From assembly GCA_017518785.1 (NCBI GenBank), contig JAFWUA010000159.1:1-31574 (forward strand): a stretch of 31,574 nucleotides of DNA, given 5' to 3'. The notes beneath the pieces were generated by a model, which was not told where the DNA came from, did not search any database, and saw only the letters and a program-made list of their open reading frames with translations. The stretch is from Neisseriaceae bacterium. GTDB lineage: Bacteria; Pseudomonadota; Gammaproteobacteria; Burkholderiales; Neisseriaceae. Below are positions 22,462 to 26,570 of the stretch, piece by piece. Position numbers and translations under genes: made by a program. Position 1 is the stretch's first letter. Every line of letters begins with the position of its first letter.

Positions 22462-22920
22462 ATGGCAGCGGTTGGTATGTTGATCATTGAATTTGAGATA
22501 ATTGTTGGTGGAATAATTTATTTGCTATTCTCTTTCATAACCTCCAAAGGACTATCTAAAAATAAAAAAGCACAGTTATTGTATTTTTCGCTATTAACTA
22601 TATTGCCATTATTGATTGCAACGCTTAATTATCAAGGATTTTGTTTTAAGAAAATGCGTTTTTTGAATGAACAAGATATATACACAATATTAGATAATAG
22701 TAAATATAAAGAACAGTCTAATGATTGTTATGGAGCATATATTTTTACAAGAGAAAAAATGTATGGCAATTTCAAAACAGATATAGATGGAGGACATTTA
22801 TATGAAAATTTTGATACTTTTATAGAAAAAATTATGGGATGGCGATATGCAATGGTGCACACGAAACAACGCACTTTTATTATGACAAATTGTGGAAATC
22901 TGTATCCGCCTGAATTTTAA
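22462..22920 (+). CDS. Hypothetical membrane protein (2 TM plus soluble Cys-containing domain), upstream partner of the RTX gene
   Basis: 152-aa ORF with AAGG RBS, two hydrophobic stretches, then LNYQGFCFKKMRFL; ends 50 bp before the RTX start. Confidence 0.75.
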   Translation: MAAVGMLIIEFEIIVGGIIYLLFSFITSKGLSKNKKAQLLYFSLLTILPLLIATLNYQGFCFKKMRFLNEQDIYTILDNSKYKEQSNDCYGAYIFTREKMYGNFKTDIDGGHLYENFDTFIEKIMGWRYAMVHTKQRTFIMTNCGNLYPPEF

Positions 22921-22970
22921 TTTTTTTCTACAACAGACTTTTTTACTTTAAACTAATTAGGAGTGCAAAA

Positions 22971-25900
22971 ATGGCTGACAAAATTTCAACTTTGCCTACA
23001 ATGGCTGAAATGACTTCAATGTACTTATTTGGTCAATTAGAAAAACCAAATAATTTACTTGATGAGAATTTAATTCGACCCAAAGATTTAGTAGTGGATT
23101 ATCCTGTAAAAATCAATATCAATGAGTATATGACAGATGGAGCAGGCAGATTTGTTAGTGCAAAAGATTTTAAGTTTTTAGATGAATTTTTTACTAAAAG
23201 CAGTACAGCTTCTGAAAATTTAGAAGCTGGAAGATATACTAAATCTGAAATAATTCAAACATTAAAGATTAAATTTGCAGGAGTAACTCAAAGTACTGCT
23301 GAATATGATGATGGAAAAGATGATTTGTTTGAAAGAGCATATATTTGGAATTCTGTTGCTTTTATGGTAAATGATGATGCGGTTTTTGTTATCGATGAAG
23401 ATGGAAATCGTTTTATTGAAAATTTTGCCATTGTTCCTTTTTCAAATGATAAACCAGGGCTTCGAGATGAAAACGGAAAACCGATGGATAATTTTGATTT
23501 CACTGGTGGGGATACATCTAATATTGCTAACGCAGCAATAGGATGGAAAATTGATCCATCTGGAATTGGTAGAAAAGTTAATATTAAATTTGATTGGGAT
23601 AATATTGATACAAAAACATTATCATATCAAGATTACCTAAATGAAAATGAAAGTTCAAATTTTTTAAGTGAAGCATGGAATCAACTTACTGTTGGTTGGG
23701 ATTCTACTTTAACAAATAATTTGATTAGAAGATTATGGGATACAGAAGTTATTCAATTTTTAGATGAAGAAAATCGTATTATTCTTTACGGTACTCAAGA
23801 CAATGATAAATTTACTTTTAATCCAGACGATACGCAAACTTCTGATTCTTCGTACGGAGAACATTATTTTTATAAGGAATTATTAAAGTTATATACAACT
23901 TTAAATAATTTCAATACGCCCAATGGAATAGTATTTATTGCAGTAAATGGCAATGATACTATAGTTGGAACTGTTCATAACGATCGTTTAATTGGTGGAG
24001 ACGGCATTGATTTATTAGACGGAGGCGAAGGTGCTGACCAATTAGATGGTGGCAAAGGCTTTGACACCTATATAGCAGGAGATGGCGATAGTATTTTTGA
24101 TAGTGATGGTGATGGTCAAGTAGTTGTTAATATGGGAGATAGTGATAATTTAGAGTTTTATGCCTATGCTTTGGGTAGTACAATCTGGTATGAAGTAGAT
24201 CAAAACAAACAAAGAACAGGCAGTTATGCCAGTAGGAAAGAAGCAGATTTAATTATATATAAACATGAAGAAAACAAACTAATTACAATTATAAAATTCT
24301 TTGATGTAGCAAAACATAAAGACAGCTACTACTCATCACTAAATATCACCTTACAAACAGAAACAGAAACCGATCCAGAAAAAATCAACTATTCAGAATT
24401 TACTCAAAATGGAAGATTTGACAAATATTGCACATTTAGCATCTTTGACGAAAATGCTCATGCAAAAATCTATTGTGGTGAAAAGGATGATGTAATTACA
24501 GCCAGTAGTTCTGCTGGTGTAATGGTTTATGGTGATAATGGCAATGACAAAGTATTTGGTAGTTTCTATACCGATATAATTTATGGTGGTTCCGGCAGTG
24601 ATTATCTTTATGGCAGTAGTTATAATCCCAATAATCAAAGAGATGAAAAAGCCAAACAATTAGATAAAGACATAATTATTGGTGAAGAAGGTAGAGATTT
24701 TATCTTTGGAGTTGCCGGTGATGATGAAATACATACAGGTTATAAAAACGAACATACAATAAAAGAAGGAAATAACCAAGCTGGCGATTGGGCAATTGGT
24801 GGCGAGGGTGATGACTTTATATTTGGAAGCAAAAACAGAGACTTCTTACAAGGAAGTGAAGGTTCTGACATACTATATGGCGGAGCATCTGATGATATTG
24901 TGATTGGAGATTCATTTATTCGTTTTGGCTTAAAAAGCAAATCATTATACAATACCGAAGTAATAGAATATCAATTACGCTCAAACAACAATAAAACCCA
25001 ATGGACACAACAAACCACAAAAGGAGGTAGCATATTAGACAACAGCATGAATGATTGGGATATAGAAATAGATTCAGAAAATGGAGATTATATCCTACAT
25101 ACAGCAGTTAATTTATATAATAACGAACATATCGTTACATATTCCGAAAATACCAACTATAACGACACATTATGGGGAGGTAGTGGCAATGACCTAATTA
25201 TCGGACAATACGGTAATGACAATCTATTTGGTGAAGAAGGTAACGACATTCTTTGGGGAGATGACAATCGAGATAATACAATTTCCGGCAACGACTATTT
25301 AGATGGTGGTGCTGGTAATGACAAATTACATGGAGGCAAAGGTAATGACACCTACGCCTTTGGAGAAAATTGGGGACAAGATATTATCTGGGATATACTT
25401 GGCAAAGATAGCATAATACTATCTATAAATCCTGATGATATAGAACTGATCAGAGATGGAATAAACCTAATTATTAAACAAAGAAATACAGAAAATCAAA
25501 TAAATATTCAAAATCAATTTTATTCCAAAGTATCATATGCCATAAATGGAATAGAAGAAATTCAATTTGCCGATGGTAGTACTTGGACACAAAGTCATAT
25601 TGAAAATAGATTACAAAACGGCACATCGAATAATGACAAATTAAATGGTACATCAGGTAATGACACCTTACGTGGAACACTAAATAATGATACTTTGCAA
25701 GGTGGTTTAGGTTCGGATACTTATATTTTAAGCGGTGATTTTGGTCATGATACCATTATAGAAACCAATCCAAACAACAATGATAAAAACAAAATTGAAT
25801 TTAGTGATACATCAATAAAAGATTATCAATTTATTCATAATAATAACAACTTAATAATTTCCAATGGTAACAACTCTGTTACAATAAATGATTTTTACGA

Positions 25901-26570
25901 TCAAAATGATGGGAAAAAAATCGACCAATTTCAATTTAATGATATAACAATTGATAACGCCCTTGCGTCATTCTTTGGTGATAATCAAAGTGGTAAAAAT
26001 ATAACTTACACCGAAAATGGCGATAATATTAAAACAGGTCTTTTCAATGGCAGACAATTTATAGTAGCAAGTGATGATGCTAATATTAATACTTCACTAT
26101 TTCAAGATGCAGTTGTGGTAACTGGTGAAAATGTTATAGTAAATACAGGTGCAAATAATGACAAAATTTATATTAACGGTTCAGGAGACATCGAAGGTGG
26201 TATTGGTTCAGATGAATATATTATTGGACAAGATTTTAGTACTGTAAATATTAATGATGCCACAGGAATTAAAGACCAATTGCATTTTACTAATCTTAAT
26301 TTAGATGACTTATTTATTTCAAAGCAAGGTAAAAATTTAATATTTCAATCTTTGGAAAATGCGGATAGTAAGGTAGTAATTGAAAATCAGAACTCTTTGC
26401 TTAATAGAATTAAAAATATTAATTTTGAAAACGGTAGTAATTTATCTCATAAAGATATTAATAAAGTTGCAGATATTTATCAGCAGTACGATTACAATCA
26501 AGTTGCAAGCGATTTATCATTAAGAGATAGCATTATGCAGCAAATTGAGCAACAACATTTGATAGGTTGA
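22971..26570 (+). CDS. RTX (hemolysin-type Ca2+-binding) protein, probable T1SS substrate, 1199 aa
   Basis: Several GGxGxDxL blocks (GGDGIDLLDGGEGADQLDGGKGFD; GGSGNDLI; GGAGNDKLHGGKGNDTY; GGLGSDTY) and C-terminal IEEIQFADG-type domains. No signal peptide; AGGAG RBS. Confidence 0.92.
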   Translation: MADKISTLPTMAEMTSMYLFGQLEKPNNLLDENLIRPKDLVVDYPVKININEYMTDGAGRFVSAKDFKFLDEFFTKSSTASENLEAGRYTKSEIIQTLKIKFAGVTQSTAEYDDGKDDLFERAYIWNSVAFMVNDDAVFVIDEDGNRFIENFAIVPFSNDKPGLRDENGKPMDNFDFTGGDTSNIANAAIGWKIDPSGIGRKVNIKFDWDNIDTKTLSYQDYLNENESSNFLSEAWNQLTVGWDSTLTNNLIRRLWDTEVIQFLDEENRIILYGTQDNDKFTFNPDDTQTSDSSYGEHYFYKELLKLYTTLNNFNTPNGIVFIAVNGNDTIVGTVHNDRLIGGDGIDLLDGGEGADQLDGGKGFDTYIAGDGDSIFDSDGDGQVVVNMGDSDNLEFYAYALGSTIWYEVDQNKQRTGSYASRKEADLIIYKHEENKLITIIKFFDVAKHKDSYYSSLNITLQTETETDPEKINYSEFTQNGRFDKYCTFSIFDENAHAKIYCGEKDDVITASSSAGVMVYGDNGNDKVFGSFYTDIIYGGSGSDYLYGSSYNPNNQRDEKAKQLDKDIIIGEEGRDFIFGVAGDDEIHTGYKNEHTIKEGNNQAGDWAIGGEGDDFIFGSKNRDFLQGSEGSDILYGGASDDIVIGDSFIRFGLKSKSLYNTEVIEYQLRSNNNKTQWTQQTTKGGSILDNSMNDWDIEIDSENGDYILHTAVNLYNNEHIVTYSENTNYNDTLWGGSGNDLIIGQYGNDNLFGEEGNDILWGDDNRDNTISGNDYLDGGAGNDKLHGGKGNDTYAFGENWGQDIIWDILGKDSIILSINPDDIELIRDGINLIIKQRNTENQINIQNQFYSKVSYAINGIEEIQFADGSTWTQSHIENRLQNGTSNNDKLNGTSGNDTLRGTLNNDTLQGGLGSDTYILSGDFGHDTIIETNPNNNDKNKIEFSDTSIKDYQFIHNNNNLIISNGNNSVTINDFYDQNDGKKIDQFQFNDITIDNALASFFGDNQSGKNITYTENGDNIKTGLFNGRQFIVASDDANINTSLFQDAVVVTGENVIVNTGANNDKIYINGSGDIEGGIGSDEYIIGQDFSTVNINDATGIKDQLHFTNLNLDDLFISKQGKNLIFQSLENADSKVVIENQNSLLNRIKNINFENGSNLSHKDINKVADIYQQYDYNQVASDLSLRDSIMQQIEQQHLIG
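24628..24818 (+). repeat. 191-bp direct repeat, copy 2 (inside the RTX gene)
   Basis: Encodes NNQRDEKAKQLDKDIIIGEEGRDF...GGEGDDF, identical at protein level to copy 1. Confidence 0.95.

Follow-up and report, generated by a model that had tools for sequence, protein, structure and literature searches.

The closest described relative of the locus considered here is the pair formed by apxIVA of Actinobacillus pleuropneumoniae and an open reading frame (ORF) that lies upstream of it (Schaller et al. 1999, summarized in PMC3034196). The product of this ORF, ORF1, is required for the weak haemolytic and CAMP (Christie–Atkins–Munch-Petersen) activity of recombinant ApxIVA (PMC3034196). ApxIVA contributes to virulence (PMC3034196; PMC7078468). 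It was described in a later study as being without haemolytic and cytotoxic activity, and the current idea about its N-terminal fragment is that it acts in adhesion after a clip-and-link reaction (PMC7078468). Here we analyze a pair of this kind in a 31,574-nt stretch of DNA from a Neisseriaceae bacterium (assembly GCA_017518785.1, contig JAFWUA010000159.1; hereafter, the window). A gene for a small membrane protein (the partner) is followed by a gene for an RTX protein, whose first 340 amino acids (the N-domain) include a head, aa 1–220, predicted to fold like the catalytic domain of colicin M (ColM).

ApxIVA has been both a diagnostic antigen and a virulence factor of A. pleuropneumoniae for 25 years, and no mechanism has been given for RTX bacteriocins since they became known in 1999. 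A ColM-like head together with a dedicated membrane partner offers a concrete hypothesis for the ApxIVA-ORF1 pair and for such bacteriocins. RTX bacteriocins of Rhizobium leguminosarum, Agrobacterium, Xylella and Xanthomonas are described with their mechanism unexplained (PMC3034196). Their likeness to the proteins analyzed here is at the level of genera: N-domain proteins are encoded on Rhizobium plasmids, in Agrobacterium and in Xanthomonas.

The ColM family provides the second comparison. In its members the catalytic domain is C-terminal; the proteins are released by lysis and imported via TonB-dependent receptors by an N-terminal translocation domain. In the window protein, in contrast, the corresponding domain is N-terminal and fused to RTX repeats, and export presumably proceeds through a type I secretion system (T1SS). 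What is common to both is the catalytic-domain fold, as predicted for aa 1–220, and an acidic-x-aromatic-Asp motif at the equivalent place. The FrpD-FrpC pair of Neisseria meningitidis, a member of the same bacterial family, has the same order of genes, in which the gene for a small envelope protein precedes that for an RTX protein of the iron-regulated type whose N-terminus is free of repeats. FrpD is a lipoprotein of the outer membrane, whereas the window partner has no lipobox, two predicted transmembrane (TM) helices and no similarity to FrpD. No FrpC-named protein was present among the N-domain matches whose names were looked up, and no direct comparison with the FrpC N-terminus was made.

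The window pair and the A. pleuropneumoniae pair

A search started from a Pasteurellaceae member of the N-domain family returned RTX proteins of A. pleuropneumoniae, 1651–1943 aa in length, that bear a self-processing module (SPM). The window N-domain is 33% identical to A. pleuropneumoniae P0195 over ~290 aa (BLASTP, E 1e-44). The P0195 gene has a ParA/MipZ-family gene (probably mrp) on its upstream side and lacZ on its downstream side, and is directly preceded by a 156-aa ORF; we take this to be the published apxIV locus with its ORF1. Direct BLASTP comparison of the window partner with ORF1 was not significant. The two proteins were joined at iteration 3 of a hidden Markov model (HMM) search, with a final E of 4.6e-35 for ORF1.

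The two loci share a homologous N-domain, RTX repeats and a small anchored Cys-bearing protein whose gene immediately precedes that of the RTX protein on the same strand; in both, the T1SS genes are not linked to the pair. They differ in that ApxIVA has an SPM (D630-P631 in P0195; D638-P639 in PMC7078468) and the window protein does not: it contains no DPLALDLDGDG-type Asp-Pro site and gave no alignment to ApxIVA 430–1070, as judged by motif and BLAST. ORF1 has one hydrophobic anchor and an NPxCC motif, while the window partner is a two-helix protein with three Cys and a shorter domain. The gene pair is already known from A. pleuropneumoniae, so the kind of locus is not new, and the window copy is an SPM-less member. 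In the openly searchable literature we found no account of how broad the N-domain family is, of the ColM-like fold predicted for its head, of its seemingly obligate linkage to the ORF1 family or of the reversed-polarity arrays described below, and none that gives ORF1 a role in immunity. The ColM reviews consulted do not mention RTX proteins.

The head of the RTX protein has a predicted colicin M-like fold

An AlphaFold2 model of aa 1–340, based on a 49-sequence alignment, had a mean predicted local distance difference test score (pLDDT) of 84.7 and a predicted TM-score (pTM) of 0.84. When the model was compared with the PDB by Foldseek, six of the eight best matches were proteins of the colicin-M family (PaeM, pectocins M1 and M2, colicin M and syringacin M), with weak E-values (0.016–0.7) and a probability of up to 0.98 (PaeM). 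Alignment with VIA-align to 153 chains gave Z scores of 7.6 (pectocin M2), 6.4, 6.3, 5.5, 5.1 and 4.5 for ColM-family catalytic domains, and no other chain reached a Z of 2. Model residues 1–220 fell on the catalytic domains exactly, for example on residues 116–270 of pectocin M2 and 138–290 of PaeM. An exhaustive VIA-align comparison with 48,161 PDB chain representatives, which is independent of Foldseek, placed all four ColM-family representatives at ranks 1–4 (Z 4.5–6.3, ~146 residues aligned); the chain ranked next had a Z of 3.3 over 67 residues. The colicin M cluster was also listed by an ESM Atlas fold search. The ColM-like fold of the head is sound for a predicted model, and it agrees with the toxin-type N-terminus suggested by the first-pass annotation of this DNA, a reading of the letters and ORFs of the window.

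In the catalytic stretch of ColM, D226KYDFNASTHR236, residues D226, Y228, D229, H235 and R236 are all required (PMC8469651). In the best hhalign register the [E/D]-N-F-D-F of the N-domain family sits on D-K-Y-D-F of ColM, the alignment itself not being significant. The position of the motif within the fold is similar as well: 44 residues separate [E/D]xFD from the point where the fold match ends, and in ColM proteins the motif lies 45–48 residues from the C-terminus (45 in colicin M itself, D226-x-Y-D229).

The N-domain family is large and several of its charged positions are conserved

No Pfam match to aa 1–340 was found even at E<=10, and matches of the RTX protein to NCBIfam models were partial, far under the curated cut-offs and best in the repeat region. 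The first-pass annotation had been unable to name a domain in the first ~270 aa, but the domain is not unique to the window. An exhaustive phmmer search with aa 1–340 against 1.84 billion cluster representatives revealed a conserved family of 644 clusters at E<=1e-3, 75 of them at E<=1e-30. Among the best 150 of the 644, the match starts nearly always within the first dozen residues, and later in a few, mostly truncated proteins. N-domain proteins span 140–4025 aa, and the long ones bear RTX repeats, HCBP_related, cadherin-like or Big_9 domains.

The closest relative of the window protein is a 1006-aa VWA+RTX protein of Suttonella indologenes. The heads of the two are 88% identical (domain alignment A2) and the C-terminal 316 residues 53% identical; the middle of the Suttonella protein, in which the VWA domain sits, is unrelated to that of the window protein. 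Judged by these sequences, the head is conserved and the body variable between species. The earlier view of the N-terminus as a variable effector is contradicted by this comparison, the N-terminus being the most conserved part of the protein.

Overall identity within the N-domain family is ~30%. Positions L19, G59, R60, F73, R122, F139, [E/D]173, F175, D176, D195, P196 and G200 are near-invariant in ~173 cluster representatives. In the [E/D]-x-F-D motif, position 173 is E or D in all 173 of 173 representatives, F175 is kept in 171 of 173 and D176 in 169 of 172. The presence of five invariant charged residues (R60, R122, E/D173, D176 and D195) at such a low identity suggests a catalytic or metal site.

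The family was found in Neisseria and Pasteurellaceae (Bisgaard taxon 45, Glaesserella, Actinobacillus), in Pseudomonas cichorii, P. capsici, Xanthomonas and Brenneria, on Ralstonia megaplasmids and Rhizobium plasmids, in Agrobacterium and Roseibium, and further in Methylobacter, Nostoc, Gloeothece and one Pirellulales metagenome-assembled genome (MAG). Some of these bacteria (Nostoc, Methylobacter, Roseibium, Rhizobium, Ralstonia, Xanthomonas) live freely or with plants, which speaks for a target that is bacterial and not animal. Related genome loci were gathered with a 12-sequence alignment, and genome G777 (L094) was left out of all claims. Loci with Neisseria labels include L057 (G844:C20), from a genome of the window's own genus.

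The following loci and clusters are recorded as observations. L044:3908-5046 encodes an N-domain protein that stands alone (310 aa; neither RTX repeats nor any further Pfam domain detected) and whose gene is followed by an overlapping partner-family gene; this order is reversed relative to all other loci. On a plasmid of Rhizobium sp. Pop5 (L095:4500-5345) an unannotated partner-family ORF lies just upstream of an annotated calcium-binding protein, and the first 70 codons of the N-domain are out of frame with the annotated start, which indicates either a frameshift or a wrongly called start. In the ESM Atlas fold search the N-domain model was matched best by two unnamed Campylobacterota clusters (587–650 aa, TM-score 0.40–0.45, residues 1–238), possibly additional relatives of the head that are not annotated as RTX proteins.

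The partner is a predicted membrane-anchored protein with conserved cysteines

The window partner had no match in Pfam or NCBIfam, and PADLOC matched neither the partner nor the RTX protein. Hydrophobic segments are located at ~aa 4–22 and 37–55, and Cys residues at positions 61, 89 and 144. The AlphaFold model (pLDDT 78) consists of a helical hairpin (aa 2–58) and a small Cys-bearing alpha/beta domain (aa 60–152). Fold matches of the helical-hairpin type were set aside as noise; there was no Cmi, YebF or FrpD among them.

Direct search with the window partner returned 23 close clusters (Suttonella, Neisseriaceae). In the partner family as a whole, an N-terminal hydrophobic anchor is followed directly by a G-[FY]-C motif; NPxCC is present in most members, and there is a C-terminal NCG. 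One N-terminal anchor is found in 35 of the 41 complete members and four Cys after the anchor in 25 of the 41. The subfamily to which the window partner belongs differs in having two helices joined by a K-rich loop, with a shortened domain and three Cys. Because of the positive-inside rule and the cysteine pattern, the soluble domain of the partner is predicted to face the periplasm.

Immunity proteins to ColM-type bacteriocins (Cmi, PeiB, PmiB, BmiB) are small and anchored, with conserved cysteines and mutually unrelated sequences (PMC5821083). The partner is like them in being a small, predicted membrane-anchored protein with conserved Cys encoded by an adjacent gene; it is not similar to Cmi in sequence or predicted fold. 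By analogy, the partner is a candidate immunity protein.

The nearest named language-model neighbour of ORF1 (L064:3505-3975) was YebF (PF13995), the fold family of Cmi, with a score of 0.82. This is a weak lead that Pfam did not confirm: no YebF was found in 34 partners at E<=10.

Partner genes are linked to N-domain genes and form arrays

An iterated partner profile converged on 47 of 1213 ORFs (44 genome loci and the window), all of them on the strand of the N-domain gene. A family member was located directly upstream on the same strand in 29 of 40 loci, with −39 to 79 bp between the end of the partner and the start of the N-domain match, and 32 of the 40 carry a partner. In all loci except one the partner lies upstream of the N-domain gene. 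The eight loci without a partner comprise three with almost no upstream sequence, two or three gene fragments, and two with insertion-sequence-like genes upstream. Co-occurrence of the two genes, which the first-pass annotation had proposed as a check, holds for most loci but not for these eight. In L026, L031 and L035 the pair is immediately preceded by HlyD/T1SS genes; in Ralstonia (L096) they flank the N-domain gene alone. The latter locus, L096:1-9351 of the Ralstonia solanacearum OE1-1 megaplasmid, is the main exception to the linkage. It encodes a 589-aa N-domain protein, next to a TolC, HlyD and ATP-binding cassette (ABC) operon and a gene for another calcium-binding protein. By tblastn, matches were obtained to 116 records of Ralstonia plasmids.

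Tandem partner copies were present in several loci: five in L038, three in Glaesserella (L054), two in Nostoc (L030) and two in Bisgaard taxon 45 (L026). In L097:3-6982 (G879:C68) and L098:795-10851 (G869:C1), minus strand, from genomes of the window's own family, the order is partner, N-stub, partner, N-stub, partner, full RTX gene. The stubs cover N-domain profile positions 3–62, ~80 codons. In L099 a partner and one stub are followed by three more partners.

Lone partners were found amid housekeeping genes at L004:8001-8459 and L006:9169-10462 (Neisseriaceae MAGs), L100:2917-3414 and L101:3136-3774. One of these four loci holds two paralogues, and no N-domain gene is nearby. In genomes G874 (100% complete, 7% contamination) and G889 (100% complete), both with lone partners, the N-domain was not found genome-wide. 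Genome-level co-occurrence with the A3 partner profile, which is insensitive to long partner variants (8 of 151 genomes, vs 24 with the N-domain), was used for the lone-partner cases only. ORFs of 50–52 aa upstream of the partner in L001 and L006 were considered as N-domain stubs and rejected (N-domain HMM, E>1).

The pattern of tandem copies, stubs and lone partners looks like that of immunity genes for bacteriocins or effectors and does not fit easily with an obligate activator or with a receptor. In contact-dependent inhibition (CDI; CdiA-CT/CdiI), Rhs and MafB/MafI systems, too, a large secreted protein with a terminal toxin-type domain is encoded next to a small protective-type gene, and the alternation of truncated toxin pieces with partner genes in L097 and L098 is a further likeness. 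The differences are as follows. The toxin-type domain lies at the N-terminus, with the partner encoded upstream of it, and what the stubs retain is the first 60–80 codons; there is one conserved family of toxin domain rather than interchangeable domains, the scaffold being what varies; and export of the window type is presumably by T1SS, not by a type V or type VI secretion system or the Maf route. The L097 and L098 arrays are the mirror image of CDI/Rhs orphan arrays. Their polarity would be reversed because a C-terminal T1SS signal would impose it.

A toxin-immunity-orphan array of reversed polarity had been proposed in the first-pass annotation for the window itself. Tandem partners, lone partners and arrays of partners and N-stubs do occur in relatives, but the remnant upstream of the window pair is a piece of RTX repeats and not an orphan toxin module.

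Proposed function of the pair and alternative explanations

We propose that the window RTX protein is a T1SS-exported ColM-like bacteriocin and that the partner is its periplasm-facing immunity protein, a reading that we judge to be evenly balanced between right and wrong. The T1SS secretion signal is C-terminal. Because of this, the ColM-like enzymatic head (aa 1–220) would be placed at the N-terminus. By analogy with colicin M, the head would cleave the phosphoester of the undecaprenyl-pyrophosphate-linked peptidoglycan precursor (lipid II), the site of cleavage being the periplasmic face of the inner membrane of the target cell, with a metal bound by the conserved [E/D]173 and D176. The RTX repeats and other C-terminal modules, which vary between species, would serve export, Ca2+-driven folding and perhaps binding to the target. 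The partner would be anchored in the inner membrane of the producer with its Cys-bearing domain in the periplasm, and would neutralize re-entering toxin in the way Cmi, PmiB and BmiB do for ColM-type bacteriocins. The enzymatic activity, substrate, target organism, import route, immunity function and membrane topology are what we infer from these comparisons.

More tentatively, and with somewhat less than an even chance of being correct, the proposal may be extended to ApxIVA-type RTX proteins in general (hundreds of Proteobacteria and some Cyanobacteria). These would be an undescribed class of type-I-secreted bacteriocins, with a head that is a divergent ColM-like lipid-II (undecaprenyl-pyrophosphate-sugar) phosphoesterase, periplasmic immunity proteins of the ApxIV-ORF1 family, and loci that evolve as reversed-polarity arrays.

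Several observations weigh against the proposal. Sequence comparisons do not connect the head to ColM: Pfam PF14859 (Colicin_M) matches none of 49 N-domain members at E<=10, and hhalign of the N-domain profile with 19–30 Pseudomonas ColM proteins gave an E of 0.72 and a probability of <1%. (The ColM sequences were taken from 29 genomes of Pseudomonas, the genus of the Pseudomonas cichorii locus L034; no PF14859 was found in 401 genomes of the window's class, and no usable match came from searching PDB sequences with the N-domain, with its profile or with the partner.) Only the first half of the ColM motif DxYDx5HR is kept, with no counterpart of the His-Arg at that place. The structural scores (Z 4.5–7.6, TM-score 0.26–0.38) are moderate and rest on a predicted model, and the predicted fold of the partner matches neither Cmi nor anything else in the PDB by Foldseek and exhaustive VIA-align. 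In R. solanacearum the N-domain gene adjoins a divergent T1SS operon, and no partner is detectable. A protein of at least 130 kDa would have to enter the periplasm of the target. Finally, for the member that has been studied, ApxIVA, haemolytic/CAMP activity with ORF1 and a role in virulence were reported, and no bacteriocin activity was reported (PMC3034196; PMC7078468).

The last point is central to an alternative that we consider unlikely, namely that the pair is a host-directed lipid-active toxin in which the ColM-like head is a phosphoesterase for membrane lipids, eukaryotic or other, whose action causes weak haemolysis and the co-haemolytic CAMP effect, and the upstream protein is a maturation or activation factor. 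ApxIVA shares the N-domain and ORF1 falls in the partner family, so the requirement for ORF1 in haemolytic/CAMP activity and the contribution of ApxIVA to virulence (PMC3034196; PMC7078468) can be accommodated directly, but according to the later study ApxIVA has no haemolytic or cytotoxic activity (PMC7078468). A CAMP effect would be plausible for a lipid-phosphoester hydrolase. However, the family is widespread in cyanobacteria, methanotrophs, and marine and plant-associated bacteria, which have no animal host, and tandem paralogue arrays and toxin-less lone copies are not expected of an obligate activator. The site of action of such a factor poses a further difficulty: the Cys-rich domain of the partner is predicted to be periplasmic, whereas a T1SS substrate passes from the cytoplasm to the outside without a periplasmic stage.

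An adhesion or anchoring pair of the FrpD-FrpC type seems to us quite unlikely. Here the N-domain would be a non-enzymatic binding module, and the partner a high-affinity receptor that tethers the secreted N-terminal fragment (clipped and host-linked in SPM-bearing relatives) to the surface of the producer. The gene order is that of frpD-frpC, FrpD binds FrpC(1-414) with a Kd of ~0.2 nM (PMC5233953; PMC7078468), and an 'as yet unidentified' bacterial surface partner has been postulated for ApxIVA(1-638) (PMC7078468). In the window, however, there is no SPM to free the head, and the partner, besides having no lipobox, had no PDB sequence match to FrpD at E<=10, though the structure of FrpD is reported as solved (PMC5233953). 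The partner is predicted to be anchored in the inner membrane and not exposed on the surface, which makes an anchoring role topologically unlikely. With the ColM His-Arg absent the domain could be catalytically dead, but the five invariant charged residues point to a catalytic or metal site, and a receptor would not readily account for lone partners and multi-copy arrays.

Very unlikely, in our estimate, is a secretion-related module, with the N-domain as a T1SS retention, plug or folding module as in LapA-type RTX adhesins, the partner as an export or quality-control accessory, and a ColM resemblance that is convergent or remote and without shared function: the extreme N-terminus leaves the T1SS last, domains of adhesin type (VWA, cadherin-like, Big_9) occur in the variable remainder, and sequence similarity to ColM is not significant, but only ColM catalytic domains, and no retention module or adhesin domain, match the fold, the stand-alone N-domain protein followed by a partner gene exists (L044), T1SS operons accompanying the pair do not differ otherwise, and LapG/LapD-type genes were not seen adjoining the loci examined.

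Should the reading of the pair as a ColM-like bacteriocin with its immunity protein be true, it would provide a mechanism for the long-unexplained ApxIVA-ORF1 pair and possibly for rhizobial RTX bacteriocins. The ColM family would acquire an export route (T1SS) and a domain order that are new to it, and a C-terminal T1SS signal would prove able to invert the usual architecture of toxin-immunity-orphan arrays. Genome annotation would gain a widespread unannotated domain pair, with 644 head clusters and a partner missed by some annotations.

Organization of the window locus

Coordinates of the pair, of the parts of the RTX protein and of the upstream remnant are collected in Table 1.

Table 1. 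Features of the RTX locus in the window (nucleotide positions in the window)
Feature	Position	Strand	Length or composition	Basis or remark
RTX remnant	21909..22344	+	two overlapping frames, 21909..22079 and 22060..22344	
Partner ORF	22462..22920	+	152 aa	ORF listing
RTX protein ORF	22971..26570	+	1199 aa	ORF listing
N-domain core	22971..23630	+	aa 1–220	predicted colicin-M-catalytic-domain-like fold
Codons of D173-N174-F175-D176	23487..23498	+	[E/D]-x-F-D motif	family-wide conservation
Second conserved subdomain	23631..23990	+	aa 221–340	joins the ColM-like core to the first RTX block; conserved, no fold match
Variable middle	23991..25619	+	RTX nonapeptide repeat blocks and HCBP_related units	Pfam, comparison with Suttonella
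C-terminal part	25620..26570	+	316 aa	53% identity to the Suttonella indologenes orthologue; presumed T1SS secretion signal

The first-pass annotation had described a two-TM, three-Cys protein encoded 50 bp upstream of the RTX gene, with an RTX remnant further upstream. The ORFs, the hydropathy and the sequence copy present in the remnant confirm this description, including the gap of 50 bp in the ORF listing. The pair is operon-like, and its genes are probably co-transcribed. On the upstream side it is flanked by plsX, proC and greB, and on the downstream side by NIF3, LysO and DUF808, all of which are housekeeping genes.

In the RTX protein, nine HemolysinCabind stretches (PF00353, E 3e-39) and two HCBP_related matches were found, all of them past ~aa 340. 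By analogy with other T1SS substrates, a secretion signal is presumed in the C-terminal part. There is no TM-like hydrophobic window, the Kyte-Doolittle 19-aa mean peaking at 1.14, and neither an rtxC acyltransferase nor a T1SS gene was present among the neighbouring genes checked, as had been noted from the sequence at first pass together with the lack of pore-forming helices. A pore-forming RTX cytolysin of the HlyA type is not indicated, there being no hydrophobic pore domain and no adjoining rtxC.

The source genome is a MAG of 1.09 Mb, 58% complete. At this completeness a sole T1SS operon was recognisable in it, on contig C79 (G000:C79:158-4774; L016), unlinked to the RTX pair. An OEP/TolC-like gene, an ABC transporter gene (713 aa) and an HlyD-family gene (400 aa) make up this operon, which is the candidate for export of the RTX protein.

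The remnant contains one HemolysinCabind match (Pfam) and, as judged with the N-domain HMM, no N-domain sequence. Its positions 22069–22263 are a 97% copy of 24624–24818 within the full RTX gene, with unrelated flanks. Six of the 195 nt differ, five of them at codon position 3, and the encoded protein is identical there. The remnant seems to derive from a different, functional allele and not from a local duplicate in decay.

A scan for promoters and terminators gave no usable signal in the AT-rich DNA around the pair. Between greB and the remnant, the intergenic segment 21826–21870 carries the motif cgtcattctgagtgtagcgaagaatc, which resembles a dispersed repeat.

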